Shown: positions 37,987 through 51,600 of the stretch, one piece after another | Position numbering within the stretch: the stretch's first letter is position 1 | Layout of the letters: every line of letters starts with the position of its first letter | Source: Bacteriovoracia bacterium | GTDB lineage: Bacteria > Bdellovibrionota > UBA1018 > CAIPTA01 | NCBI GenBank assembly: GCA_050246755.1 | Contig: JBFWVL010000002.1 | Coordinates: forward strand, 328,207-392,206 | Direction: 5' to 3' | DNA: 64,000 bases | Notes under the pieces: generated by a model | Databases searched by the model: none | Told to the model about the DNA's origin: nothing | The model's input: only the letters and a program-made list of their open reading frames with translations | Program-made: the position numbers and the translations under genes

Positions 37987-38898
37987 TTAAGCGGCTAACC
38001 CATGAAGATAAAACGTTTTCTCAATGGAACGAAGCAGCAAAAGAAGCGATTCCGGGCTCGATTTTTGGGGACTGAGCCAATTTTTTAGCTGCTCCTGTTT
38101 CAAAAAAACTGGGCAGCGATCATGGCCGGCAGCGGCCACCTCGGCCGGCGGATTATCGGTCACCATGGCGAACGAGCTGATGGCCCCATCGTTTCCACTC
38201 GGAGAAACGGAAAAAAGACCGGCGGCCCACATCACCTCGCGATTTTCTGGCGCAAAATAGATTTCTTCTTTTTTGCCGTGCGCGGAAACCCACTCGTAGA
38301 AGCGCTGAAAAGGAAAAATCAGGTGATTCTTTCCGAAAAGGGGGCGCCAAGTTTTAGCGCTCAGGAGCGAATCGTGTCTGGCATTAAATACATTATATTG
38401 ACTAGGAATCTCGCTGCCGTCGGGATTTTGCACCCGAAAGCGCATGGGCCGTAAAAATCGCTTTCCGGCCTCCTCCACGATCACGGGGGCGAAGTAGGAG
38501 GGGAAGATACGATCGTCGAGCGGATCGATTCGATCGAAGGAGGCTCGAATCTTCCCGTCCAATTTCACGATGCGCCGCTGCAGCACGCCGATTTTCTTCG
38601 CGCCCGTGGCGCTAGGCTTTTTGCTCTCCAGCGCGCGCAGCTCGTGCACGGCGGCCCTCAGCGCAATCTCGTTGCGCGACTTCTCTTCGGCGTGAAAAGC
38701 CGAAATAAACGGCGATAGCCTGGCTTCCGCCGGATCCTGGCTCAGCAAAAAATAACGATCCAGCCCGAAGGGCACTCTTAGCTGCGGGCTAGATAGGCGC
38801 TGGCGGAGAAGGCTTTCAAAACTGCTTAGGTCGGTTTGCGCCTGGAACTCTCCGGCTATTTCCTTAAGCGAAGTTTTAATGCGAGTTGAGTAGCACAT
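37987..38898 (-). CDS. SOS response-associated peptidase (SRAP/HMCES family)
   Basis: N-terminal M-C, FNAR..S, FYEW, GHDRCPVFL. Confidence 0.88.
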   Translation of the reverse strand: MCYSTRIKTSLKEIAGEFQAQTDLSSFESLLRQRLSSPQLRVPFGLDRYFLLSQDPAEARLSPFISAFHAEEKSRNEIALRAAVHELRALESKKPSATGAKKIGVLQRRIVKLDGKIRASFDRIDPLDDRIFPSYFAPVIVEEAGKRFLRPMRFRVQNPDGSEIPSQYNVFNARHDSLLSAKTWRPLFGKNHLIFPFQRFYEWVSAHGKKEEIYFAPENREVMWAAGLFSVSPSGNDGAISSFAMVTDNPPAEVAAAGHDRCPVFLKQEQLKNWLSPQKSSPESLLLLLRSIEKTFYLHGLAA

Positions 38899-39639: not shown

Positions 39640-40065
39640 ATGAAGACCCTCCTCTATTTGTTCGTTTTCCTGGCGGGGACTGCCAGGGCCGAACCGGAGC
39701 CGAATTTTCAGTTTTCGTACGTGCCCAACGAAGGCGCGGAAGGGGTAGCGTGCGCCCACGAAAGAATCCGCGATCTTCCCGACTGGCGCGTGGCCTGCCC
39801 ATTTTTCGGGGAAGAAAAACGATTCACCGCCCACGTTCTGCTAAGAAACTTTCCGTCCCAGAAAAAAAGTGCGGTGGAGCTGCTATATTGGGTTACCGAG
39901 GCCGCGGACGCACCGGGATCCTCCCCGAAATTTCACGCTACGAGCGCTCTGCTTAAGCTGAAGGGGGAAACCGCTCTGGATTCCCTCTCGCTGGCCCAGG
40001 GCGTGGAGAACGACTATGCCTCCCTCGTGCTCGACGCCTCACTGGAAGCCAAGGGAAAGAAATAG
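39640..40065 (+). CDS. Secreted hypothetical protein
   Basis: Signal peptide ending ARA; two Cys; ELLYWV. Confidence 0.6.
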   Translation: MKTLLYLFVFLAGTARAEPEPNFQFSYVPNEGAEGVACAHERIRDLPDWRVACPFFGEEKRFTAHVLLRNFPSQKKSAVELLYWVTEAADAPGSSPKFHATSALLKLKGETALDSLSLAQGVENDYASLVLDASLEAKGKK

Positions 40066-40089: not shown

Positions 40090-40782
40090 ATGAACCTGCA
40101 TAAAATAAAAACGCTTTTAACCCAGATTCTCTGCCTGCAGCTCGCTATCGGAATGGGCACCGGCTACGCGGCCCCCGTGGTGAGCACCCCGCAAGTTGCC
40201 ATTGCCAAAAATGTAGATACCCGCGCCCTCGAAAATGCAAACCCGGAATACGTAAAAACTTTGAGCGAAATGCTAAAGGCCTTGGGGGCTAAAAAAGTAA
40301 CTTGTACCTCGGGGTATCGCTCCCCCGACCAGCAGCGCCGGGCCTGCGTAAGAATTTGCGGAAACCCGAACGGATGCCCGAACCTCTGCGCACGTCCCGG
40401 AAGATCCCAGCACCAACAAACGACCATTGCCACTTGTGATCTAGTGGGACTCACGAACGGATGCCATGAGCTGAAGCGCCTGTGCGATGAAAAATATAAC
40501 GGAAAATGCGGAATTGGCGGCTACGCGGGCGGGGGTTATCACTTCGGCGTGAACGACACCCGTTTTTCCGCCTGGAACAAATGCGCCGGTCTTCCGAGAA
40601 ATAAGAGCAACTATGGCCCTGATTTTCGCGCCCCGGCCGATCCAAGCCCCGGTTCCCTCACTGGTACCGAGCTGATCGCCGACGAAGCCTCCAAGAGCCA
40701 CGAGATCATCATCATCGCGGCCATTGCCGCCCTCGGTGTAGGCGGAGCCTTGCTCTACCAAAAAATGAGGAATAAAAAGTGA
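40090..40782 (+). CDS. Secreted Cys-rich M15-type Zn peptidase with C-terminal TM anchor (cassette 1, gene A)
   Basis: SGYRSPDQQ, ARPGRSQH-x8-D, GYHF; 10 Cys in the mature part; hydrophobic and basic tail. Confidence 0.65.
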   Translation: MNLHKIKTLLTQILCLQLAIGMGTGYAAPVVSTPQVAIAKNVDTRALENANPEYVKTLSEMLKALGAKKVTCTSGYRSPDQQRRACVRICGNPNGCPNLCARPGRSQHQQTTIATCDLVGLTNGCHELKRLCDEKYNGKCGIGGYAGGGYHFGVNDTRFSAWNKCAGLPRNKSNYGPDFRAPADPSPGSLTGTELIADEASKSHEIIIIAAIAALGVGGALLYQKMRNKK

Positions 40783-41492
40783 AGTCCTTACCCAAATTCA
40801 TCCCCTTCGCGGTTGGCGCTTTCTTGATTTCCAGCGGCGCCCAGGCGGCCGCGCCGTTTTGCCTGCCCTTTGCGGCGCTAAAAATAAATGCCACGAATTG
40901 CGACGATAACTTCGCCCTCGGCAAGCAGGCGGACAATTGCCTTTCGCTTTTCACCACGGCGCTGAGCAATAACCGCGCGCAGATCGACAAAATCTTGAAA
41001 GCGGAGGCCGCCAAAGGCAGCTCCGGGCAAAATATCACCTATAAAACTACCGGATCCATTTTCGCCCAAACCCTTCAGGAGCTGGACCATCTAATTGCCA
41101 GCGGAGAACAGGCCAAGTTTGCGGTAAAAACCTATTCGGATAACCTTTCGCTTCCCGAAGATTATGATCAGCCGGCTCTAACCGGAATGAGCACCGAGAA
41201 ATACCTTTCGGTAGAACCTTGCTACGCCACTCCCTTTCGCATGGTGAGCGAAGACAGCGCCGTGCTCAGCCTCATGGTGGAAGACCTCAAGAAGGCCAAG
41301 AGCGAAGTGCTCGCCAAGAGCGGACTGAACCAAGTCAACTTAGGGCAAGTGGAATCCAGCAGCGACACTAAGGTGCTGAAGGGCAAGCCCGTTGCCCCAA
41401 CGGGACTTCCGAAAGAATCGGCGGTAAAAAATCGCGATTCCGACGTGACGGGTATTCTGGAAGATCAGAAGAAGCGCGAAGAGAAAAAATAG
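40779..41492 (+). CDS. Secreted partner protein (cassette 1, gene B)
   Basis: Signal peptide; C-x12-C-x12-C; EPCY; NRDSDVTG...KK; start overlaps the gene A stop. Confidence 0.75.
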   Translation: MKSLPKFIPFAVGAFLISSGAQAAAPFCLPFAALKINATNCDDNFALGKQADNCLSLFTTALSNNRAQIDKILKAEAAKGSSGQNITYKTTGSIFAQTLQELDHLIASGEQAKFAVKTYSDNLSLPEDYDQPALTGMSTEKYLSVEPCYATPFRMVSEDSAVLSLMVEDLKKAKSEVLAKSGLNQVNLGQVESSSDTKVLKGKPVAPTGLPKESAVKNRDSDVTGILEDQKKREEKK

Positions 41493-42263
41493 CTAACTGT
41501 TCTCCGCCGATTTCGTGGCCAACAAATTCGGAGCGCGCTCCGTGATCAGCTTTCCTAAATACGCCTGGACCGCCGCCATCATCCCAAACTGGTAAGGCGC
41601 CAGACAAACACTCAGGCCTATGGCCACGTATTCCAGCCCCGAGAAGCGGAAGCTCAGCATGCGCACGGGAAAGAGCAGGAGCAGGCTAGGTGCCGCCTGC
41701 AACAACAGCGCCAGCAAGCATCCTTTCCAGATGGCACGGAAGGCTTTCCAGGAGTCCCGGGTAGAGTGATGGGAATGCCCGCGGGCGGCCACCAGGGCCG
41801 TGGCGCCATGATAGAGAACGAACCATACCGGAATAAAAATCACCACTAATCCGCCCGTGATTGAGGCGAAACGAATGGGATTCGTGATGCTCGTCATATA
41901 ATTCGTAAGCGCATAAGCAAAAGCGGGGATCAGGGTGAGGCAGGTGAGCGTGGCTACCTTGATCGACATCCAGGTCCAGGAGATGCCGAAATCCCAGAGT
42001 GAAGGCTGATGGCGGGCGAAGGAATTACGCAACTTATGCAAAACACTGAAAAGCAAAATCAGCGCGAGGGCGAAAAAGAAAAAACTCGCCAGGGTATACC
42101 CGAGAACCGCGAAAGATTCTTGGGAGGCCATTCCCGAATCGATGGCATTTTTTTTCGATTTGCTGAGTTCGCCGAATAATATCCCCACCGCCCAAAAGAA
42201 TGTGCCGAGGTAGTAGGCGGTTTGTTTCATTTCCAAGCGCAAAAAATCTAGGATGGACTTCAT
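41493..42263 (-). CDS. Hypothetical polytopic membrane protein
   Basis: About 6 hydrophobic segments. Confidence 0.55.
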   Translation of the reverse strand: MKSILDFLRLEMKQTAYYLGTFFWAVGILFGELSKSKKNAIDSGMASQESFAVLGYTLASFFFFALALILLFSVLHKLRNSFARHQPSLWDFGISWTWMSIKVATLTCLTLIPAFAYALTNYMTSITNPIRFASITGGLVVIFIPVWFVLYHGATALVAARGHSHHSTRDSWKAFRAIWKGCLLALLLQAAPSLLLLFPVRMLSFRFSGLEYVAIGLSVCLAPYQFGMMAAVQAYLGKLITERAPNLLATKSAENS

Positions 42264-42342
42264 TTCTTTCCCCAAGATGAAAAGGTTAGGGCGGGCGGTT
42301 CGCCTAAATTTTAGGCCGAAATAGCCGGGAAGGAAATCAATT

Positions 42343-45300
42343 TTAGAAAGAGTGAAAGTATTGAGTAGGCTCGATCACCAGGCGCGCTTGCTCGCGGTCT
42401 TTGCTCTCGGGCCATACGCTCTTCACGTCGGCCACCCATACGCTATAGGAATTGGTTTCTCGCTGGAGCTTGCCGGTCACCACGAGAAAGCAATTATCCA
42501 AAAAAGCATCCTTTACTCTTTCCCAGATATCAGGGGCGATCGCGATATCCAGAAAGCCGAACTCGTCCTCGAGAGTGCCGAAGGTCATGCCTTTCGCGGT
42601 GGGCGGCTGCTGGCGCACCAGTAATAAACCCGAAAATTTCACCTGCGTCCCGGGGCGCTGGAGCTTGGCGGTCTGGGTATTCAGCTTGGGCAGGGGCAAT
42701 ATTTTCCGCAGCGCCATCATGGGATGCCCGTGCGTGGAGAGCGAAAATGCATCATATTCTTCGAGAATTTTTTCGTAATCGCCGAGGGCATGGAATTTTG
42801 CCCCGCTTTCCTCCACATAACCGGAATCGAGGAATAAATCTCCCTGCACGCGGTCGCGGCGGCGCTGAAACTCGAGCACCTGCCAAAGCGCTTCGCGCGG
42901 AGGAAAGCCGAAGCATTCGAATGTCCCCCCCATGGCCAAACGCAGGAGCGCGTCTCGCCGCACAGGGGCGCGCTTAAGAAAATCCGCCAAGCCGGTAAAA
43001 GGGCGGAGGCTAAGGATTTTTTCGGCTTCCTCCCGGTGCATTCCCTTCACCATTTTCCAGCCTAAGCGCAGCGCACCGTTTTCGATGGTACTTTCCCAGG
43101 CGGAAGCATTCAAATGCACGGGCAATACCGTTACCCCCTGAAGCTTGGCGCTATCCACCAGGGTATGGGGAGAGTAAAATCCCATGGGCTGGGAGTTCAA
43201 AAGCCCGCAGGTGAATTCGGCGGGATGATGGCACTTTAAATAACAGGAAACATACGCCAAGAGCGCGAAGCTCGCCGCGTGGCTTTCCGGAAAACCGTAC
43301 TGCGCAAAGCCTTGGATCTGCTGAAAGATGCGGTCGCAAAACTCCTCCGATAAACCATTTTTTTTAAAGCCATCCTTTAAGCGCTGGCCCATCTTCGTGA
43401 TCGATCCTTCGGAACGCCAGGCCGCGATGGCGCGCCGAAGCTCATCGGCTTCGCCGGGAGTAAAGCCACCGAGCTCTACCGCCATCTTCATCACTTGTTC
43501 CTGGAAAAGCGGTACGCCGAGAGTTCGCCCCAAAATCGCGCGCAGGGCCGGGTGAGGGTAGTCTTCCTTTTCTTCTTTGCGGCGCCGGCGTAAATAGGGG
43601 TGCACCATTTTTCCCACGATGGGTCCCGGCCTCACGATCGCCACCTGGATCACCAGATCGTAAAATTTCTCCGGCAACAGCCTGCCCAGCATCGACATTT
43701 GCGCGCGGCTTTCAACCTGAAAGGTACCCACCGTATCGGCCATCTGGATCATCTTATAGGTTTTCGGGCATTCCTTGGGGAGCAAGTGCATTTCCGTTTT
43801 CACGAGCTTCAGGGTGCGCTGGATCGCGGTAAGCATCCCGAGCGAGAGCAAATCTACTTTTAGGAGGCCGAGAAAATCTAGGTCGTATTTATCCCACTGG
43901 ATGATGGTACGGTTCTCCATCCTCGCCGGCTCGATGGGCACGATCTCGATCAAGGGATCGGCCGAAAGGGTGAACCCCCCGCTGTGGATCGAAAGATGGC
44001 GCGGGAAGCCCGCCATTTCCTCCGAAAGCGCTTCCAGTAATTTCCTGGGCTCCTTAGTTTCGGTGTTCTGGGCGCGCTCGTCGAAAAACTTATTGAGCTT
44101 CTTGGCCGAGAGCGTCCCCACGTCGATGCCGAGAGCTTTGGCCAGTTCCCGGAAAGCCGAACGCCGGCGGTAGGTGATCACCGCACTCACCATGCCGGCG
44201 CGATCGCGCCCGTAACGCTCGTAAACGTACTGCAAAACTTCTTCACGTCTTTCGTGCTCGAAATCCACGTCGATATCGGGTGGCTCGTTCCGTTCCTCCG
44301 AGATAAAGCGCTCAAACAGCAAATTCATGTGAACGGGATCGATCGCGGTGATGCCGAGACAATAGCAAACCACGCTATTGGCGGCAGCACCCCGGCCCTG
44401 GCAGAGAATGTCTTTGGAGCGCGCAAATGCCACGATATCGTTAATGGTGAGAAAATAATCGGGAAAGCCAAGTTTCTCGATCAGGCGAAGCTCATGTTTC
44501 ATCTGCGCGCTCACGGCATCTGGTATCCCATTGGGATATCGCTCTTGCGCTCCCTTCCGGGTGAGATGCTCGAGGTAGGACTGCGCCGTATGCGATTGCG
44601 GAATCCATTCCGAGGGATAACGGTATTTCAACTCCGAAGGGCAAAAGGTGCATTGTCCGGCGATTTCAATCGTGGCCTCGACGGCTTCCGGCAGATCCGA
44701 AAAAAGTGCCCGCATTTCGGCGCAGGACTTCAGCCTCCTTTCGCCGTTGGGGAAAAGCTTATGCCCTAATTTCTGCAAAGACGCATTCTCGCGCACGGCG
44801 GTGAGCGCGTCCTGAAGGGGCTGCCGCGCGCTCTCGTGGTAGTGCACGTCGTTCGTGGCTACGATGGGCACGCTCCAGCGGTCGCGTATCCAGATGGCTT
44901 TTTCGGTATTTTCTTTTTCGAATCCATCGCGTAACCGATGGAGGGTCACGTAGAGGCGGGAAAAGAGTGGGCGCAGCCGTAAAAAATCCGCCGTGAGCGG
45001 AGCCAAGGCGAATAAACCTTCCGCCGCCTCCGGAAATGCATTCAGCAGCGCGCGCAATTCTTCGAAACGCAGCGCGGCCTTTCCTTTCTCCTTTCCGGCA
45101 TGGCTGGCGGTGAGGATACGGCAAAGCAAGCCATAAGCCTTACGGTCACGGGCGAGAAGAGTGAGCCGCGACGAATTTTCCAGGGAGAGGCTGGCTCCCG
45201 ATATCAATTTTAGGTCGGGGTATTTCTTTTTTTCCCAGAATGCTTTCGGGATGCCGTACACGCCGTCGAAATCGTTCAGCGCAATGGCGGATAAGCCGAG

Positions 45301-45387
45301 CTCCGCCGCTTTAATGATCAGCTCCTCCGGAGAGGAAGCTCCGCGCAGAAAAGAAAAATTCGTCTTTACCTCGAGCTCGGCGTACAT
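42343..45387 (-). CDS. dnaE2: Error-prone DNA polymerase DnaE2 (ImuC)
   Basis: YAEL..TNFSFLRGAS, GRGAAANS, PPDIDVDFEHERRE, GFPESHA, LLNSQPMGFY, RQQPPTAKG. Confidence 0.96.
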   Translation of the reverse strand: MYAELEVKTNFSFLRGASSPEELIIKAAELGLSAIALNDFDGVYGIPKAFWEKKKYPDLKLISGASLSLENSSRLTLLARDRKAYGLLCRILTASHAGKEKGKAALRFEELRALLNAFPEAAEGLFALAPLTADFLRLRPLFSRLYVTLHRLRDGFEKENTEKAIWIRDRWSVPIVATNDVHYHESARQPLQDALTAVRENASLQKLGHKLFPNGERRLKSCAEMRALFSDLPEAVEATIEIAGQCTFCPSELKYRYPSEWIPQSHTAQSYLEHLTRKGAQERYPNGIPDAVSAQMKHELRLIEKLGFPDYFLTINDIVAFARSKDILCQGRGAAANSVVCYCLGITAIDPVHMNLLFERFISEERNEPPDIDVDFEHERREEVLQYVYERYGRDRAGMVSAVITYRRRSAFRELAKALGIDVGTLSAKKLNKFFDERAQNTETKEPRKLLEALSEEMAGFPRHLSIHSGGFTLSADPLIEIVPIEPARMENRTIIQWDKYDLDFLGLLKVDLLSLGMLTAIQRTLKLVKTEMHLLPKECPKTYKMIQMADTVGTFQVESRAQMSMLGRLLPEKFYDLVIQVAIVRPGPIVGKMVHPYLRRRRKEEKEDYPHPALRAILGRTLGVPLFQEQVMKMAVELGGFTPGEADELRRAIAAWRSEGSITKMGQRLKDGFKKNGLSEEFCDRIFQQIQGFAQYGFPESHAASFALLAYVSCYLKCHHPAEFTCGLLNSQPMGFYSPHTLVDSAKLQGVTVLPVHLNASAWESTIENGALRLGWKMVKGMHREEAEKILSLRPFTGLADFLKRAPVRRDALLRLAMGGTFECFGFPPREALWQVLEFQRRRDRVQGDLFLDSGYVEESGAKFHALGDYEKILEEYDAFSLSTHGHPMMALRKILPLPKLNTQTAKLQRPGTQVKFSGLLLVRQQPPTAKGMTFGTLEDEFGFLDIAIAPDIWERVKDAFLDNCFLVVTGKLQRETNSYSVWVADVKSVWPESKDREQARLVIEPTQYFHSF

Positions 45388-46652
45388 CAGTCGAAAATCC
45401 CGTGCAAAAAAAGCTCGGTCTCGTTGAAATGGCGGAATACCCATAGCCGTTCTCCCGCCAAAGTATCCACACAAAAATACTCCCGGGAAAATCCCCCGAG
45501 CCACCATTCTCCGCGCAACTTCTCCGGCCCCTCAAAAGCCAGGATCCCCCAAGAACGATTCTGGCAACGCAAAAAATTTCCGTCGCGGCGGATCGGAAGG
45601 GGCTTAGCCAATAAGCGCAGAGGGCGTAACGGCACATGGGGCAAGAGCTCGCCTTTCCCGGGTTCCAGCGATTTTTTCCAGGCCGCTTCGGGTAATAAAC
45701 GAGGGGAGGGCGCCGCCAGAAAAGCCGCATTTTCACCCAGCCTTTCGCTCAGTCTGGCCACGAGCGAAGCCCAGGCTTCTTTTTCTTCTTCTACTTTGGA
45801 AAAAAAGTCTCGCTGTGCATTGCGGAAGGGGGCCGTTTCGATAATTTCGATCGCAACCTCTTCCAGCGCATCTTCTAGCGGCCGGCTTTCCAGCTCCTTG
45901 GCGATTCTATCCTGCAAAAACTGCAGTACTCCTTTCGGATCCGATTGGGGCAAGGGCAGCCTCACTTCCAGCAGACGCTCGCGGGATCCGTTACGCGCCA
46001 GGCGGTTGAGCCGAAAACGCAATCGAAATGCCATTAGCATCTCGGCCCTCGCGAAAAGGCGGATAAATACGCGGTCGATCAATCCTTTGAGAATAAAGAA
46101 AATAGGCTCGAGATTTTCGATCTGGGCCGCGAAATCCAGCTCCGTTTTCTCTTCGATTTTTGCGGAAGGCACGAATCGGGGCCAGGCGATACGTTTAGCC
46201 TCGAACACCTTAGCGTATGCCCGCGCGCCCTCCTTGCCGAAACGTGCCGGGATTTCCTTAAGCGGTACGGCCAAAAATTCACCCAGAGTTTTTATGCCAA
46301 GCTTGCGCAGGATGGCACCCGGGGAAAAATCGCTGGGCGTAAACGGAGAAAGATAATCGCGAAGAGCATCCACGGGCAGATTTTCCCGCGCGGTAATTCC
46401 GTAGCGCGCAAAGGCCAGCGAAGAAGGTAAATCACCGGCGCTGCTGATCGTGGCGGCGAGCTGGAAAGCGCCGAGGATTTCTTGCAGCCTCGCAAAACAT
46501 TGCTCGAGAGAAAAAAGCCCTAGGGAACCAGAAACCTCCACGAAAACCGCTTCGTGGGATACGGCTACTTGCGGGCTAAACGCCAAGCAGGCCTCCGCCA
46601 AGGCCGGAAGCCGGGAAAAATTTTCGCGCAGCAGGAGGCAAACCACCACCAT
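45387..46652 (-). CDS. imuB: ImuB-like inactive Y-family polymerase
   Basis: FSPQV, EVSGS..LF, LGIKTLGEF...RFG, LVARLSERLG, RPLRLL, GPEKLRGEWW, LHGIFD; TGATG coupling to dnaE2. Confidence 0.85.
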   Translation of the reverse strand: MVVVCLLLRENFSRLPALAEACLAFSPQVAVSHEAVFVEVSGSLGLFSLEQCFARLQEILGAFQLAATISSAGDLPSSLAFARYGITARENLPVDALRDYLSPFTPSDFSPGAILRKLGIKTLGEFLAVPLKEIPARFGKEGARAYAKVFEAKRIAWPRFVPSAKIEEKTELDFAAQIENLEPIFFILKGLIDRVFIRLFARAEMLMAFRLRFRLNRLARNGSRERLLEVRLPLPQSDPKGVLQFLQDRIAKELESRPLEDALEEVAIEIIETAPFRNAQRDFFSKVEEEKEAWASLVARLSERLGENAAFLAAPSPRLLPEAAWKKSLEPGKGELLPHVPLRPLRLLAKPLPIRRDGNFLRCQNRSWGILAFEGPEKLRGEWWLGGFSREYFCVDTLAGERLWVFRHFNETELFLHGIFD

Positions 46653-46653
46653 T

Positions 46654-47160
46654 TCACTTTTGCCGCAGAACGAAGAGCTTCCGTTCGCGCACCTCCAGCG
46701 AAAGGGCGATCGGCCAGGCGGCGAGGGGTTTTTTTCGCGCCAAGAGAATTACGGTGGCCTCGGCCTTTTCGGCCAATAGCTGAAAGCGCCTCAACTGCCG
46801 CTCGTCCTCGCGGTAGGGCGCGTGGAATACGAGGATCGGGAATAAGCGGCTGCGGAGGATGGTGGCCGCGGCCCACGCCGCATCCTTTCCAGCCTCAACA
46901 AAAAATGTGTTCTCGAGCTTTCTCTTTCTCTGAAAGAGGGCGGGCGGATAGAGGGAAAATTCACTCTCGATCCAGGCGGCCGGTACCTCGGAATTCTCCG
47001 CGAGAAAATGCGCCACGTTCTCGGTTTTCCCCTGACCCGAAACTTCCACCAGCACGCCTTTCGGCAAGCCTCCCGCCAAAAGCGAGTAAGGATGGGTTTC
47101 GCTGCGGGAGAGTTTCTTGAGGGCGCCGATGCGCGCGCGCAGCTCTTGTAGAGCGGACAT
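46654..47160 (-). CDS. imuA: ImuA-like RecA-fold protein
   Basis: GGLPKGVLVEVSGQGKT, YPPAL, LRRFQLLAE; RBS GGAG before ATG 47160 (alternative start 47217). Confidence 0.8.
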   Translation of the reverse strand: MSALQELRARIGALKKLSRSETHPYSLLAGGLPKGVLVEVSGQGKTENVAHFLAENSEVPAAWIESEFSLYPPALFQRKRKLENTFFVEAGKDAAWAAATILRSRLFPILVFHAPYREDERQLRRFQLLAEKAEATVILLARKKPLAAWPIALSLEVRERKLFVLRQK

Positions 47161-47240
47161 CCAGTCTCCAGCGCCCAATGGGGGCGAATTAAGTGGGTGA
47201 TAAGCAGAGGGATCCATTCGCAGCGATGAACCACCCCTTA

Positions 47241-47270
47241 AGCATAATAGTACATTTGTAGTACAGTCAA
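47241..47270 (-). promoter_or_regulatory. imuA-imuB-dnaE2 promoter with candidate LexA operator
   Basis: TTGACT(47265-47270)-18-TATGCT(47241-47246); GTAC-N7-GTAC at 47250-47264. Confidence 0.7.
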
Positions 47271-47389
47271 GGGCATTCCATAGATGAGCTCAATATTTTC
47301 CTTACAATAAGGAAAGCAGGTATCTAAATCCGCGAAATATTTTAGACTATTCAGGAGAGCTCCCCCCGATAGAAAATTTTGGAGTATCG

Positions 47390-47878
47390 ATGAAACTCAC
47401 CCTAACTCTTTTGGTTCTTACCTATTTTTTGAGCCCCCATGCGGAAGCTGGCTGCATGCCTGGAACCGAAGGCGCCTGCGGCGATCAAAATATCTGCGTT
47501 TCTGATCAGCCCACCGCAAAAAGCGGCCGTGGCGATAATAATAAGTGCCTGCCGGCAAAAGTATGCGGCGCGCTCCGCATGATCGCCAAAGAGTTCGGGA
47601 AAGTAGAGATCGCTTCCGCCATGCGCGTAAATAACGCCCGTCGCGGTGGCGCAAAAAATTCTTGGCATAAAACCTGTAACGCCGCCGATTTCTTGGTACC
47701 CAACCACCAGAGCAAAGCCACCCAGCAAAAATTGGCTAAGCTCATGATGGGCATCAATGGGATAGGCAAGAACGTCTACTGCACCGGGCGCTCCCACGTG
47801 AGCATTTCGCCCCGGGAATATTTCTACAGCAGCTGCGTGGCCGGCGGAAAAAAGCGCGCAAAAAGAAAACACCGTTAA
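47390..47878 (+). CDS. Secreted Cys-rich M15A-like Zn peptidase (cassette 2, gene A)
   Basis: Signal peptide AEA; SAMR..N.RRGGAKNSWH-x6-D, RSHV; 8 Cys; basic tail. Confidence 0.7.
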   Translation: MKLTLTLLVLTYFLSPHAEAGCMPGTEGACGDQNICVSDQPTAKSGRGDNNKCLPAKVCGALRMIAKEFGKVEIASAMRVNNARRGGAKNSWHKTCNAADFLVPNHQSKATQQKLAKLMMGINGIGKNVYCTGRSHVSISPREYFYSSCVAGGKKRAKRKHR

Positions 47879-47890
47879 GCAGGAGGAAAA

Positions 47891-48586
47891 ATGCACTACC
47901 TATTCATGCTAGCCCTCTTATCCGGCACCCAAGCCCTCGCCGCTAAAGATTATTCCAAGCTGCCCAAAAGTTTTTGCGAGCCCGTGACCAGAATCGCGTC
48001 CGCGGTGGAAGATTGCGAAGGCAACGATCTCTTCCTGCAAAAAGGCGAAGACTGCCTAGACCTACTGGATAAAGAATCCAAGACCGTGGCCGGCATCCTA
48101 CCCGCCGCCTTTTCGAAAGACCTCACCCAAAAGCAGGGAGCGAAATTCGACTCCTCCGGCAAGGACTATAAAGTAACCTCTCTTTCCCTCGCGTACCTGA
48201 TCGCCGTTACGAACACGGCGATAGCGGAAATCAAATCCTACCAAGAAAATTTAGTGCTGCCTCCAGACAGCGACGAGGAAGAAGTTACCGGAGGCAATGT
48301 GCAAGCCTACGCGATGAGCGTGGACTGCTACGGCGCGAATAAGGAAAATCTCGACAGCCTGCTCGAAGATTTCGATAAGCGCCTGAAGCAGCTTCAAGGC
48401 GCTAAGGCCATCGCCGACGCTCACGACTCCACCTCAGGCTCCCGCGAGCAAAAAGTGCAGATGAATTCCGGCACCGATATTATTCGGGGCCAGGGTAAAG
48501 CCGCCGTACTGCCCAAGGGTGGAATTCCGGAAAATCGAGATTCCGACGTTTCGGGAATCAAAGAGAGCAAAGAAAAGAAAAAATAA
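47891..48586 (+). CDS. Secreted partner protein (cassette 2, gene B)
   Basis: RBS AGGAGG; C-x12-C-x12-C; DCY; NRDSDVSG...KK. Confidence 0.75.
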   Translation: MHYLFMLALLSGTQALAAKDYSKLPKSFCEPVTRIASAVEDCEGNDLFLQKGEDCLDLLDKESKTVAGILPAAFSKDLTQKQGAKFDSSGKDYKVTSLSLAYLIAVTNTAIAEIKSYQENLVLPPDSDEEEVTGGNVQAYAMSVDCYGANKENLDSLLEDFDKRLKQLQGAKAIADAHDSTSGSREQKVQMNSGTDIIRGQGKAAVLPKGGIPENRDSDVSGIKESKEKKK

Positions 48587-48589
48587 AGA

Positions 48590-50137
48590 TCAGCCCTGAA
48601 GCGCTTTTAGGGTACGTAACACTATAGGCTCTTCCATCTTCAGCGTTTCCAGCTCGCCGAATAGTGCATAGCAAATATCTTCGTAGGAAAAGGAGTTTTC
48701 CCCGTTTTGCTCCAGCAGGGCCTGCACGTAGCGGATGGAGCGGTCGATGAGCTTATTATTGCTCGGCTTCACCCAGGTCATTAGATTCCCTTCATAGCGC
48801 CCGAGCCGCGCCATCAGAAGGGAAGAGTGCGTATTCAACAAAAGCTTCAGGTAAATATGCTCAAAGAGCGGATGCAGCTTTTCTACGCTGAAAGAAGTTT
48901 CTCCCGCCGGGGAACGCCAAACCATATTTCCGCCTTCGCGGGTGATCGAAAATATTTCTTGCCGCTTGCCGTTCAGGCGCTTCACGCGCTGCTCGCGGGC
49001 ATTGCGACTGAAATCATACCCACGCAGGCGCGGCCAGTTCGACACGGCGGCCAGCTCGTCCCATTCGAGAGGAATAGGCTCGCGCAGCAAGAGCTCTTTC
49101 CAGGCGCTCATTACGTCGGCGGCTTTCGGGAAACTCAAATAGGCCAATGCGGGGGCCGCGTCTTGGTCCAAAAGGTTCTCCACGGGCACGAGGCTAAAGG
49201 TGGGAGAACGCTCAGTGGTGTCGGTAAAGATCGTGATGCCGTAGCGATCGGTCTCATAGAGCGTATATCCGCCCGCCAAGTAGAGGGCCGCTTCCCATTC
49301 GATATACTTCTGCACCGAAGCTAAGGGAGCCTTACGATAAAAGTCCACGAAAGGCGCGAGGTCCAAAAGCTTTTTTGGATTTTTTGGATCGGCGAAAAGC
49401 GCCACACCCGCGGCCAGCATCAAAACCGTGCTCGCCTGCAAGCGCGTGCTCCCCGAGATCGCCATTGGCCCCGTGAGAATCGGAATCGTGCGCAGGGCGG
49501 GATTATTTAGGAAGCGGCGGCAACGCTCGAGCCGCTCCGCCAACAGCGCGGGCGGATTACAAAATAAAACGTAGTGGGGTGCGCGGGAAATGCGCGCGGC
49601 CTCTTCCACCGCCCCAATGACCGAGGGAGTTTCGCCGCCTTCCGTGGTGGCGATCATCAAATCGCCCTCGCTAAAACCCAGCTCCCTCACCTGGCGTGCG
49701 CCGAAATCCGGATGATCCTCAAAATTCTCGATCGAACGCACCAGGGCAATATCCCCGCCCGACATAAAGGAAACCAAGCGATCCGCATCTTTGCTTCCCT
49801 GGTGCACAAAGCGCCAGATCACCTCGAGGGAAAGCGATAGTCTTCCGGTGGCTCCGCAGCCATAAAAAAACACTCTTTTACCCTTCGCGAAAGTGGCGTG
49901 AATGGCCTCGGCCATTTTTTCGAGCTCGGCCCGTTTTTCGAGAATCTTTTCCATGGCTGCTAAATCCACGGCGCGGAAAATTTCCATGGCCTCGGGAAGA
50001 TTGTCTTTCGCCAGGGAAGATAATTGCAGCGTGGCCGGGTGCTGGCTTTCGGTAGGCAGAGAACCCAAGCGAAACTGGGGAGCGATTTTCAGAAAATCGT
50101 CGGCTTTCTTTCGGGCTTCCGGGCTCACCTTAGGCAT
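48590..50137 (-). CDS. Long MurQ/GKRP-like SIS-domain protein
   Basis: LPTE..HP, GCGATGRL, SGGD.AL..IENFED, GSTRLQA, KLLLN..S..MARLG..GNLM..V..SN.KL.DR. Confidence 0.75.
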   Translation of the reverse strand: MPKVSPEARKKADDFLKIAPQFRLGSLPTESQHPATLQLSSLAKDNLPEAMEIFRAVDLAAMEKILEKRAELEKMAEAIHATFAKGKRVFFYGCGATGRLSLSLEVIWRFVHQGSKDADRLVSFMSGGDIALVRSIENFEDHPDFGARQVRELGFSEGDLMIATTEGGETPSVIGAVEEAARISRAPHYVLFCNPPALLAERLERCRRFLNNPALRTIPILTGPMAISGSTRLQASTVLMLAAGVALFADPKNPKKLLDLAPFVDFYRKAPLASVQKYIEWEAALYLAGGYTLYETDRYGITIFTDTTERSPTFSLVPVENLLDQDAAPALAYLSFPKAADVMSAWKELLLREPIPLEWDELAAVSNWPRLRGYDFSRNAREQRVKRLNGKRQEIFSITREGGNMVWRSPAGETSFSVEKLHPLFEHIYLKLLLNTHSSLLMARLGRYEGNLMTWVKPSNNKLIDRSIRYVQALLEQNGENSFSYEDICYALFGELETLKMEEPIVLRTLKALQG

Positions 50138-50424
50138 GACCTAAGTGTAAGCGATTTTTGGGCTCTTTGTTAGGCCTGGCCCGTGACGCCCCGCCGCCAC
50201 CATAAAATTAAATAAATATTATTTTTAAGGCGCTATTTAGCTGGGGCGCCCACCCTCGGCGATTTTTTAAAGCGAAGAATTTGCCAATTAAATTAAGCAC
50301 TTGCATACACGCCACCGGATCGGCATGCGCAAGTAAAATAGATTTTCAGTCGATAAAGCCACACGACGATAAATTTCCTGAAAAACCCTCGTCGAGATGC
50401 AAGAATATTAGTGAGGAATCCCCG

Positions 50425-50868
50425 ATGCCCAACTTCAAATCCTTTACGTTTCTCTTGTTTTCTTTTCTTCTCGTATGCCTAGTGGTTGAACAGGATGCGT
50501 GGGCAAGAAGAAAAAGACGCGGGCACCGCTATTTAGGCCGGCAAGGCGTGGCCTGCGTGGAATTCGCAACTCCACCAAAATGCGATATTCCCGCCTCCCG
50601 GGTTAAACAGTCCAACGGAGAGTTTCGCCTAAATCAGCAGCTTTGCGGAATGGTAAAAGCCCATCTTCAAAAACAGCCCAGCTGCTTTTTTACGATCGGC
50701 TATCGCAGCTGTAAAACCAATAGTGGTATCCGTGGAGCTGCACGTAGATCCCGCCACCTATGTGGTAAGGCCGCGGACGTAAGAAAAGGCACCTGCAGTC
50801 TCGGCCAAGTTCACACCAAAGGAAGCGCCGTACACCAGCACTTTTCACCCTTAGGGCCTTGCCAATAA
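50425..50868 (+). CDS. Secreted Cys-rich M15A-like Zn peptidase (cassette 3, gene A)
   Basis: Signal peptide AWA; GYRSCKTN...GAARRSRH-x6-D, HQHF; 8 Cys in the mature part. Confidence 0.7.
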   Translation: MPNFKSFTFLLFSFLLVCLVVEQDAWARRKRRGHRYLGRQGVACVEFATPPKCDIPASRVKQSNGEFRLNQQLCGMVKAHLQKQPSCFFTIGYRSCKTNSGIRGAARRSRHLCGKAADVRKGTCSLGQVHTKGSAVHQHFSPLGPCQ

Positions 50869-50898
50869 ATTATAAATATTTAAAAATAGGACCCCCGA

Positions 50899-51600
50899 AT
50901 GAACCATAAGCCACTCTTAACTGCCGTAGTCTTTTTCCTAGCCGCTCAAGCCCAAGCCGCAAATGTGCCTAAGTACCTCGGGGAAATCCCTTCTAGCTAT
51001 TGCGCTCCAGTGAGTAAAATAGACACAAACATCAAAAGCTGCGACGACAATAAGCTCTTCGTGCGGGTGGCGCAGAAATGCTTTGACGACTTCAAAAGCC
51101 TTCGTAAATCTACTGCAAATGACCTTGCGGGCCGCTTCGCCAAGGGCGACCAAGATAAGCAGCGCAAAGACTTTGCCGACCATGCCGCGAATAACCAGGA
51201 AGCAATCGCCGCCCACAAATACCTAATTAGCTTGGGCGAGCTGGCCGTGAGTGAACTCGACGGCTATTTTGACTATATGGAACATCCGGAAGACGCTGAA
51301 AACGACGATGAGATTCTCTCTGAGCCATGTTTCATCGAAAATGCTACCGCCCTAGAAAACATAGTGAACGATTTTGAAGACGAAGTAGACACGATGAAAG
51401 AGGCGAAAGAGATTGAAAAGGTACATAGCGCGATCTCCAGCCAAAATAAGCAGCAAATCGATGCTTCGAGCACCAATTTAAAAATCAAATCCACCACTGG
51501 CAAAGGTAGCGGCACCATCAAAGCCGGTACCACGGGAAACCGCGAGTCCGACGTGAGCGGCGTGGAAGAATCCAAAAAAAAGAACGAGCAGAAAAAATAG
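50899..51600 (+). CDS. Secreted partner protein (cassette 3, gene B)
   Basis: Signal peptide AQA; C-x12-C-x12-C; EPCF; NRESDVSG...KK. Confidence 0.75.
   Translation: MNHKPLLTAVVFFLAAQAQAANVPKYLGEIPSSYCAPVSKIDTNIKSCDDNKLFVRVAQKCFDDFKSLRKSTANDLAGRFAKGDQDKQRKDFADHAANNQEAIAAHKYLISLGELAVSELDGYFDYMEHPEDAENDDEILSEPCFIENATALENIVNDFEDEVDTMKEAKEIEKVHSAISSQNKQQIDASSTNLKIKSTTGKGSGTIKAGTTGNRESDVSGVEESKKKNEQKK

Follow-up and report, generated by a model that had tools for sequence, protein, structure and literature searches.

A 64,000-nucleotide (nt) stretch of the genome of a Bacteriovoracia bacterium (contig JBFWVL010000002.1, positions 328,207 to 392,206; hereafter the window) carries three two-gene cassettes on its plus strand, each composed of a gene for a predicted secreted, Cys-rich M15-type peptidase (A1, A2 and A3) followed by a gene for a second predicted secreted protein (B1, B2 and B3) (Table 1). 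The three pairs, and the minus-strand genes between them, had been noted in an earlier reading of the window (the original prediction) and were confirmed from the open reading frames (ORFs). A1 and B1 overlap by 4 nt (GTGA), and the A2/B2 and A3/B3 genes are separated by gaps of 12 nt and 30 nt, respectively. The minus-strand genes between the pairs encode a 260-amino-acid (aa) membrane-like ORF, a DnaE2-like polymerase, two ORFs with no Pfam match, a SIS-domain protein and a response regulator. The protein features first described were also recovered: A1, A2 and A3 are Cys-rich and have hydrophobic, signal-like N-termini, an S-x-H motif, an Asp and a late His, and each B protein (231-237 aa) has a hydrophobic N-terminus ending in A-x-A and exactly 4 Cys. 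The (S/G)xxR motif ascribed to every A needs a looser wording, as A3 (I-G-Y-R) fits only as G-x-R. The cassette had been called triplicated, and three copies are present; because the paralogs within the window share only 23-29% (B) and 19-22% (A) identity, the three cassettes are, by this measure, old paralogs and not the result of a recent triplication.

Table 1. Coordinates of the cassette genes and associated features. Positions are those of the window or, where indicated, of the extracted locus or contig.
Feature	Location	Position	Strand	Description
A1	window	40090-40782	+	230 aa; predicted secreted Cys-rich M15/LAS-like peptidase; C-terminal hydrophobic stretch and basic tail
B1	window	40779-41492	+	237 aa; predicted secreted member of the three-helix-bundle family; GTG start
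A2	window	47390-47878	+	162 aa; predicted secreted Cys-rich M15/LAS-like peptidase; basic C-terminal tail
B2	window	47891-48586	+	231 aa; predicted secreted three-helix-bundle partner; strong Shine-Dalgarno (GGAGG) upstream
A3	window	50425-50868	+	147 aa; predicted secreted Cys-rich M15/LAS-like peptidase
B3	window	50899-51600	+	233 aa; predicted secreted three-helix-bundle partner
A1 C-terminus	window	40690-40782	+	18-residue hydrophobic stretch, then QKMRNKK
ORF upstream of A1	window	39640-40065	+	141 aa; clear signal peptide; no Pfam or NCBIfam match
SRAP gene	window	37987-38898	-	SOS-response-associated peptidase; Pfam 2.2e-27
DnaE2-like polymerase, then two ORFs	window	42343-47217	-	between cassettes 1 and 2; no Pfam match for the two ORFs
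Genes beside B4	L004	479-1476	+	ParD-like antitoxin (E 8.9e-4) and Zeta-toxin/AAA_33 kinase-like gene (E 4.2e-10)
Tandem cassettes	L044	2931-5614	-	two cassettes; partners with G-H-S-[DE]-G motif, no Pfam match
Divergent pair	L048	3738-4421	+	B with SGNH/GDSL-like secreted protein (weak Pfam match)
Divergent pair	L050	2114-2827	+	B with SGNH/GDSL-like secreted protein (weak Pfam match)
Long B variant	L029	280-1452	-
Long B variant	L034	2539-3723	-
Long B variant	L037	3021-4274	+
Long B variant	L039	2994-4145	+
Long B variant	L032	617-1873	-
B-like frame	G294, C22	40826-41284	-	two partial B-like matches (E 3e-10, 7e-9); 174-aa open frame

A is predicted to be a small LAS-type Zn peptidase, in agreement with its first assignment to M15/LAS. 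A2 (32.5 bits, E 1e-7) and A3 (25.6 bits, E 1.4e-5) passed the 23.2-bit cut-off of Pfam Peptidase_M15_3 (PF08291); A2 also matched a PHROG endolysin (2.5e-7), and A3 matched NCBIfam MepK (1.1e-5) far below the MepK cut-off. A1 fell below the PF08291 cut-off (19.2 bits, E 0.0014; VanY, E 0.01) and was joined to the M15 group only via an alignment of 19 M15-like proteins encoded beside B genes in the window and its relatives, and via BLAST cluster 0, which it shares with 15 other B-linked partners. The Zn-ligand pattern of M15/LAS enzymes is H-x(6-8)-D followed by a further H, with a conserved R preceding it. The R, the S-x-H and the D are invariant in 19/19 of the aligned partners (R77, S106, H108 and D117 in A1; R79, S91, H93 and D100 in A2, alignment A7), and a later His is present in A1, A2 and A3 and was, by eye, unclear in four relatives (L026, L030, L033 and L052). 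A profile of the 19 partners matched 18 PDB chains at E <= 1, with solved M15/LAS peptidases among them, namely the Streptomyces albus Zn D-Ala-D-Ala carboxypeptidase (1lbu, 9.9e-6), the phage Ply500 L-Ala-D-Glu peptidase (2vo9, 3.4e-5), VanXY (4mur, 1.7e-4) and LdcB (4ox5, 1.2e-3), and the 1lbu alignment spans the R, S-x-H, D and late-H motifs of the A family. Compared to these enzymes, A is shorter, has basic tails and no cell-wall-binding domain, and contains 8-11 Cys in the window copies (11 in A1, 8 in A2 and 9 in A3, counting one each in A1 and A3 that by eye lies inside the signal peptide). The hydrophobic C-terminal stretch of A1, which A2 and A3 lack, could anchor the protein in the membrane or act as a tail resembling a sorting signal.

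Modelling and database comparison indicate that B is an undescribed family with a generic helical-bundle shape, because no library, PDB or Foldseek match was found for it. An exhaustive search of 1.84 billion representative proteins returned 522 sequences at E <= 0.001, mostly 210-250 aa in length; 425 of them reach 1e-10 or better and 29 reach 1e-30 or better. The family alignment comprises 131 sequences from these hits. Five residues are invariant in the alignment (C29, C42, C55, C146 and Q82, B2 numbering) and a further four are near-invariant (N45, Y117, S218 and G222); the four Cys thus extend across the family, and probably form two disulfides. An AlphaFold2 model of B2 made with the family alignment (mean predicted local distance difference test (pLDDT) score of 87.2, predicted template modelling score of 0.75) has three helices (residues 42-73, 82-119 and 145-193), a loop between the second and the third that is conserved in the family as P124-E-D126 (P-E-D-Y in B1, P-E-D-A in B3), and a tail of approximately 38 residues that is read as disordered (pLDDT near 61-70). 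The tail carries a C-terminal motif, S-D-[IV]-[ST]-G-[TVI]-[EK]-[ED], followed by a Lys-rich end (S-D-V-T-G in B1 and S-D-V-S-G in B3); in the form S-x-[IV]-[ST]-G, the motif is found in the last 30 residues of 121/131 B sequences.

The absence of B from characterised families, which the original prediction had assumed, was borne out in each library searched. Nothing scored above cut-off in Pfam or NCBIfam, there was no match in PHROGs or PADLOC, and the best E value for the B profile against PDB sequences was 2.3. Foldseek comparison of the B model gave no match at E <= 0.001 in either the PDB (best E 0.14, template modelling (TM) score <= 0.40) or BFVD (best E 0.045), and the ESM Atlas gave no usable match by features. 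A word-indexed protein search with the B alignment returned 12 matches, none of them named, and a related-locus search of genome contigs with a 4-row B alignment returned four pattern matches, none of which was confirmed.

Two explanations of the B tail were considered. A general sorting tag was rejected, since a scan of the genome's 15,497 ORFs found the motif convincingly placed at the C-terminus in the 4 B proteins alone; 3 other matches look like spurious ORFs. A wall tether like that of Braun lipoprotein (Lpp), in which the mature protein begins with a lipobox Cys and always ends in Lys, was not supported: B ends in Lys in only 80/131 sequences and has a lipobox-like motif in 2/131. A likeness to the TonB box was not convincing, and a literature search with the tail motif strings gave no relevant paper among the matches listed. 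Five long B variants (383-418 aa; Table 1) have an extension of approximately 170 aa after the tail motif that is of low complexity and has no Pfam match. All five contain a second tail-like motif (SDIT in L029 and L034, looser in the others), and the four that match by BLAST share the C-terminal sequence LF-x-[LR]-V-x-x-RYR-x-x-[ED]-LFR, of which L032 has only a looser form.

A fourth B gene (B4) is located on another contig of the same genome and was detected with an E value of 2.3e-21 using a profile built without it; the protein encoded upstream of it has a signal peptide, lacks the M15 motif, matches nothing in Pfam and belongs to a group termed the 'TGY' class. The genes adjoining B were examined by scanning loci with the B profile (the window, the locus of B4, and 39 matches from relatives with their flanks). 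This yielded 43 B ORFs, 41 of them assessable once two contig-end fragments were left out. Partner classes were set by BLAST clustering, Pfam and motifs, and eight loci were assigned by inspection: the adjacent 118-aa M15-like ORF was taken as the partner in L026, no partner was assigned in L031, L038 (TrpS upstream) or for the second B of L047, and divergent neighbours were recorded for L036, L037, L048 and L050, the last two being SGNH-like. The Pfam tally of the partners was made on an initial set of 39, before inspection changed six loci. A same-strand ORF lies directly upstream of 34/41 B genes, a divergent secreted neighbour is present for 4/41, and 3/41 have no candidate partner. The distance between partner and B is -43 to +46 nt in 31/34, and the remaining 3 have an over-extended B ORF start. 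The original prediction had an M15 gene directly upstream of B, and this is the case for 19/41; the enzyme encoded upstream of B varies.

Among the 34 same-strand partners, 19 are M15-like, five belong to the TGY class (a BLAST cluster with no Pfam match that includes the fourth cassette of the genome) and one further truncated ORF resembles TGY by eye only. Two partners form a Cys/Gly-rich 'CGX' class (a BLAST cluster), two have a G-H-S-x-G motif and no Pfam match, and single partners match SLT (Pfam E 6.1e-4), Amidase_2 (E 1.9e-6) and GH114 (E 1.6e-49), leaving two without a class. The four divergent neighbours comprise two SGNH/GDSL-like proteins (weak Pfam matches), one weak SLT match and one unidentified protein. 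The tandem cassettes with the G-H-S-[DE]-G motif and the two SGNH/GDSL-like pairs (Table 1) contribute candidate lipase/esterase members of the proposed arsenal. The partners are basic (isoelectric point of 8.3-10.8 in 36/38), 33/38 have a signal-peptide-like N-terminus by a crude test, and across the classes they show 10% mean column identity and no common handle. By these assignments B accompanies a polymorphic set of predicted secreted enzymes acting on the envelope or matrix, including at least four Pfam-supported families.

The TGY class has no sequence match in Pfam or the PDB, and its AlphaFold2 model (pLDDT 65) gave no Foldseek match at E <= 0.001. Foldseek ranks 1-5 (E < 0.25) are a diffocin baseplate protein, Cel45A (twice), an expansin and an MltA-family transglycosylase, which we take to be double-psi beta-barrel folds. 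A double-psi beta-barrel, lytic-transglycosylase-like identity for the TGY class is offered as a lead only.

The complex of A2 (residues 21-162) and B2 (residues 18-231) was modelled with Zn, each chain with its own unpaired alignment. The three runs scored 0.85, 0.81 and 0.87 (median 0.85), the best of 3 controls scored 0.00, and the runs share at least 87% of contacts with a partner pLDDT of at least 71. This outcome counts as support for binding, a mark that was reached by 58/80 solved complexes and by 2/110 mismatched pairs, counts that are only rough here as own alignments and Zn lie outside the calibration. Confident contacts on A2 include R79, residues 90-93 (including S91 and H93), residue 98, D100 and residues 146-147 (including H147), and coincide with the invariant catalytic-site residues of the M15-like partners. 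On B2 the contacts are residues 122-132 (the P124-P125-D126 loop), 40-49 and 140-160, which take in the conserved loop between helices together with one end each of helix 1 and helix 3. Among the pairs with the lowest predicted error are A2 D100 with B2 D126, and A2 146/147 with B2 124/125 and 144, and the B2 tail lies outside the predicted interface. From the proximities in these contact lists, we infer that the B loop caps the Zn site of A. The A-B interface that the original prediction called for is thus predicted for the A2-B2 pair, and over the Zn site.

Comparison of the loop among the assessable B proteins indicates that it covaries with the class of the partner enzyme. All 19 M15-linked B proteins have P-x-[DE], and 17/19 have P-[ED]-[DE], a form present in only 2/22 of the others. 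The five TGY-linked B proteins instead have [FYI]-[AP]-[EDN] preceded by D, none with P at position 1, and the loop reads P-I-D in the two SGNH-linked, P-G-N in the GH114-linked and P-G-R in the Amidase_2-linked B proteins. In contrast, the Cys, N45, Q82 and the tail motif are constant across all partner classes. Because P-E-D occurs in 75/131 sequences of the family alignment, the loop also suggests that M15 partners are the commonest in the wider B family.

The same association was seen in a B tree, built by a quick method with the loop columns removed (39 rows, 4 short rows left out). The M15 label requires 4 changes on this tree compared to a shuffled mean of 12.3 (0/500 as low), and one clade (Shimodaira-Hasegawa-like approximate likelihood ratio test (SH-aLRT) support of 99) holds all four TGY-linked B proteins in the tree, both CGX-linked proteins, the TGY-like one, one that is G-x-S-x-G-linked, and two orphans. 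B3 groups most closely in the tree with the B protein that accompanies an A3-like peptidase at L005, a locus from a relative (SH-aLRT 95). Since the M15 label and the TGY clade track the B tree, the cassettes thus appear to duplicate and diverge as units.

The B family is confined to one uncultured Bdellovibrionota family. B was found in 7/41 genomes (the 40 nearest and the window's own), all in a single GTDB family (f1) and in 2 of its 4 genera; besides the window's own genome, 6/8 f1 genomes have B. Wider sampling gave B in 7/127 genomes of the class and in 7/401 genomes of an even phylum sample, six of these in f1 and one a weak partial match elsewhere (E 3e-10). This sole match outside f1 (G294; Table 1) could be a distant or degraded relative of B. 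Two homologs of partner proteins are labelled 'Bdellovibrionota bacterium' and 'Oligoflexia bacterium' at NCBI, which bears out the phylum assumed in the original prediction. Within f1, the seven genomes with B have 1, 1, 4, 6, 7, 13 and 14 matches each, and no B was found in the f1 genomes G006 (97% complete) and G008 (86%). The cassettes cluster, with three in 11.5 kb of the window and two each in L017, L032, L044 and L047; copy-number variation and clustering are marks of a conflict system.

Several neighbouring genes were recorded alongside the cassettes (Table 1). The 141-aa ORF that ends 24 nt before the start of A1 may be a third gene of cassette 1, and has no counterpart in cassettes 2 and 3. 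Upstream of cassette 1 is the SRAP gene, and between cassettes 1 and 2 are the DnaE2-like polymerase, whose closest match is a protein from a 'Bdellovibrionales bacterium' metagenome-assembled genome (53% identity), and the two ORFs; this arrangement resembles an imuA-imuB-dnaE2 mutagenesis cassette. On the strand opposite to B4, and adjoining it, the ParD-like and Zeta-toxin-like genes may be a type II toxin-antitoxin pair.

These results are best explained by a hydrolase encoded with its cognate inhibitor, owing to the linkage of the genes, the predicted interface over the active site, the class-tracking loop, the clustering and the swings in copy number. We hold with moderate confidence that B represents a new scaffold of the inhibitor or 'immunity' kind that acts on envelope hydrolases exported by Sec; what we infer from the comparisons above are the inhibition, the export, the use against others and the role of the tail. 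Each cassette would supply a Sec-exported, basic, disulfide-rich hydrolase and a translationally linked, downstream-encoded cognate inhibitor that is also secreted. The hydrolases of the window would be Zn-dependent M15/LAS peptidoglycan peptidases, and in the producer's periplasm the loop between helices 2 and 3, which reads P-[ED]-[DE] in B proteins linked to M15, would block the Zn site together with the adjoining ends of the helices, with B serving as an immunity or safety-catch protein. Through loop changes the B scaffold would have been re-fitted to other enzyme classes, and the cassettes together may constitute a fast-turning-over arsenal, probably aimed at the envelopes of other bacteria. 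The tail, S-D-[IV]-[ST]-G with its Lys-rich end, would attach all B paralogs to a common component that serves their retention, release or export. The module of M15 peptidase and inhibitor or carrier put forward in the original prediction is consistent with the predicted interface over the Zn site; 'M15 plus partner' proved too narrow a description, the partner in the fourth cassette being a non-M15 protein. Nothing that the original prediction had named as speaking against it was found.

Several points weigh against an inhibitor. Active-site occlusion is equally expected of a co-exported carrier, as in colicin-immunity complexes. The complex model covers one pair, A2-B2, with unpaired alignments and Zn, and the tree and loop statistics are inflated by the relatedness of the rows. 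The hydrophobic C-terminus of A1, with its possible membrane anchoring, is as compatible with a housekeeping enzyme as with a weapon. An inhibitor needs no invariant disordered tail, so the most conserved feature of B is left unexplained. It would also be unusual for one fold to neutralise M15, SLT, Amidase_2, GH114 and lipase-like enzymes, and most immunity families are toxin-specific, according to a survey of such proteins (PMC3482391).

Because the inhibitor reading leaves the invariant disordered tail unexplained, a role for B as a carrier stays alive. B could be mainly a carrier or export adaptor that binds A in the periplasm and whose tail hands the A-B complex to a shared machine, such as a secretin-based system or vesicles, so that the two leave the cell together, with B shed at the target and inhibition a by-product. 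No part of B is better conserved than the tail motif, which falls within a disordered stretch outside the predicted A2 interface and is, within this genome, restricted to the 4 B proteins; the long B variants bear extra conserved short motifs on their disordered extensions; four secretin genes are present in the genome, where neither TssC nor Hcp was matched; and a constant protein shared by many enzyme folds is typical of adaptors. However, the enzyme-touching loop is predicted to sit on the catalytic residues and covaries with class, a protein that is only an adaptor should recognise an invariant handle, and the A proteins share none across classes, and no export machine is linked to the cassettes. 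As a replacement for inhibition this role is judged unlikely, and a carrier or export-adaptor role in addition to inhibition is more likely than one instead of it. More speculatively, B may be a loop-programmable universal inhibitor, one fold capping at least five unrelated enzyme folds, with the common tail coupling the capped enzymes to a shared release or export step. This proposal is put forward as a doubtful one; if true, it would amount to a 'load, lock and release' pathway for envelope-degrading enzymes, specific to this lineage and unlike any described secretion adaptor or immunity family.

The cassettes might alternatively be housekeeping autolysin-regulator modules that act on the cell's own wall in growth, division or shape, with B the periplasmic governor of the hydrolase. 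Coiled-coil regulators of amidases and endopeptidases are known (EnvC, NlpI and PcsB/CwlO-type proteins), and the predicted coiled-coil-like bundle of B, the relationship of the small M15 enzyme A to wall-remodelling enzymes of the MepK/LdcB type and the possible membrane anchoring of A1 are in line with this. Against it, genomes of a single family differ in copy number between 0 and 14, with none in two genomes that are 97% and 86% complete; the GH114 (1.6e-49), lipase-like and SGNH-like partners do not act on peptidoglycan; and the paralogs are very divergent, with partners that are basic and Cys-rich like exported enzymes. A housekeeping role is accordingly regarded as improbable. That the adjacency has no functional meaning, B being an unrelated secreted structural or surface protein and the complex model a false pass, is considered very improbable: 2/110 mismatched pairs did reach the mark, own alignments lie outside the calibration and 7/41 B genes lack a same-strand partner, but linkage is seen for 34/41, the loop changes with enzyme class and all three controls gave 0.00. 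Remnants of a phage lysis module (an endolysin with a spanin-like helical protein) are hardly credible. In favour of this reading, endolysins commonly have M15, SLT or Amidase_2 folds, spanins are Cys-containing helical proteins of the periplasm, and A2 matches the PHROG endolysin family (2.5e-7). Against it, B matches nothing in PHROGs and no BFVD fold at E <= 0.001, lacks a membrane segment and has a lipobox-like motif in only 2/131 sequences; the neighbouring DnaE2-like, SIS, response-regulator and SRAP genes are not of phage type, GH114 and lipase-like partners are not endolysins, and some genomes carry up to 14 copies.

The concept of a hydrolase with a cognate inhibitor or immunity protein is already well known. 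No account of a hydrolase-immunity family in Bdellovibrionota was found among the titles and abstracts listed, and relative to the literature searched in this way the new elements are the B family, its fold, its use across many classes of Sec-exported enzyme and its conserved tail. The central claims draw on one passing complex model and on comparative genomics within a single uncultured family. If B is an inhibitor scaffold, it would add a new family and fold to the few proteinaceous inhibitors of peptidoglycan hydrolases, and would be a second kind of Bdellovibrionota self-protection protein after the ankyrin protein Bd3460. The logic of one versatile immunity scaffold for many toxin folds, as in the cytoplasmic SUKH/SuFu proteins, would extend to Sec-exported enzymes that act in the periplasm. 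B would also serve as a genomic flag, marking the secreted ORF directly upstream as a candidate envelope-active enzyme; the enzymes flagged here include at least three classes with no family assignment (TGY, CGX and GxSxG-like), and the invariant tail motif would point to a shared component.

One of the nearest known systems is that of Bdellovibrio bacteriovorus, in which the ankyrin-repeat self-protection protein Bd3460 binds and inhibits the secreted wall endopeptidases Bd3459 and Bd0816 and so protects the producer's own wall (PMC4686830). This system and the B cassettes share a phylum label and the arrangement of a secreted peptidoglycan peptidase adjoining the gene for a binding and inhibiting protein, a function that for B is predicted. 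They differ in that B is modelled as a three-helix bundle with no ankyrin Pfam match, and in that Bd3460, as described there, is a single gene for two enzymes, whereas B is multi-copy, with one copy per enzyme and many enzyme classes. Bd3459 and Bd0816 are reportedly PBP4-type serine DD-endopeptidases and not Zn M15 enzymes.

The periplasm-acting effector-immunity pairs of type VI secretion systems (T6SS; Tae/Tai, Tge/Tgi and Tle/Tli), likewise among the nearest known cases, are encoded in effector-then-immunity order, have secreted immunity proteins, include amidase or peptidase, glycosidase and lipase effectors, and vary in content between close relatives. Like these, B lies at most 30 nt downstream of A or overlaps it, and has a signal-like N-terminus. 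Unlike T6SS effectors, the A proteins carry their own signal peptides, and in the window's genome (95.7% complete) there was no match to TssC (PF05943) or Hcp (PF05638), whereas four secretins were matched. Because of these signal peptides and the lack of a TssC or Hcp match, T6SS delivery is not supported by the gene content. A T6SS immunity family usually serves one effector family, whereas B is a single family for all the enzyme classes. The periplasmic lysozyme inhibitors Ivy, MliC/PliC and PliG insert a conserved loop into the active site, are not known to be gene-linked to their targets and act against foreign lysozymes; B differs from them in its predicted fold and has no Pfam match to these families.

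B has no sequence or fold relation to the SUKH superfamily by Pfam and Foldseek against the PDB, and the resemblance is one of organisation. SUKH is a precedent for one immunity scaffold serving many toxin folds (PMC3482391), and B, like SUKH in that account, would combine one scaffold and a variable binding surface with many paralogs and clusters. SUKH proteins are alpha+beta, cytoplasmic and mostly directed against nucleases and deaminases, whereas B is predicted to be all-helical, Sec-exported and linked to envelope hydrolases, and carries a conserved tail that is read as disordered.

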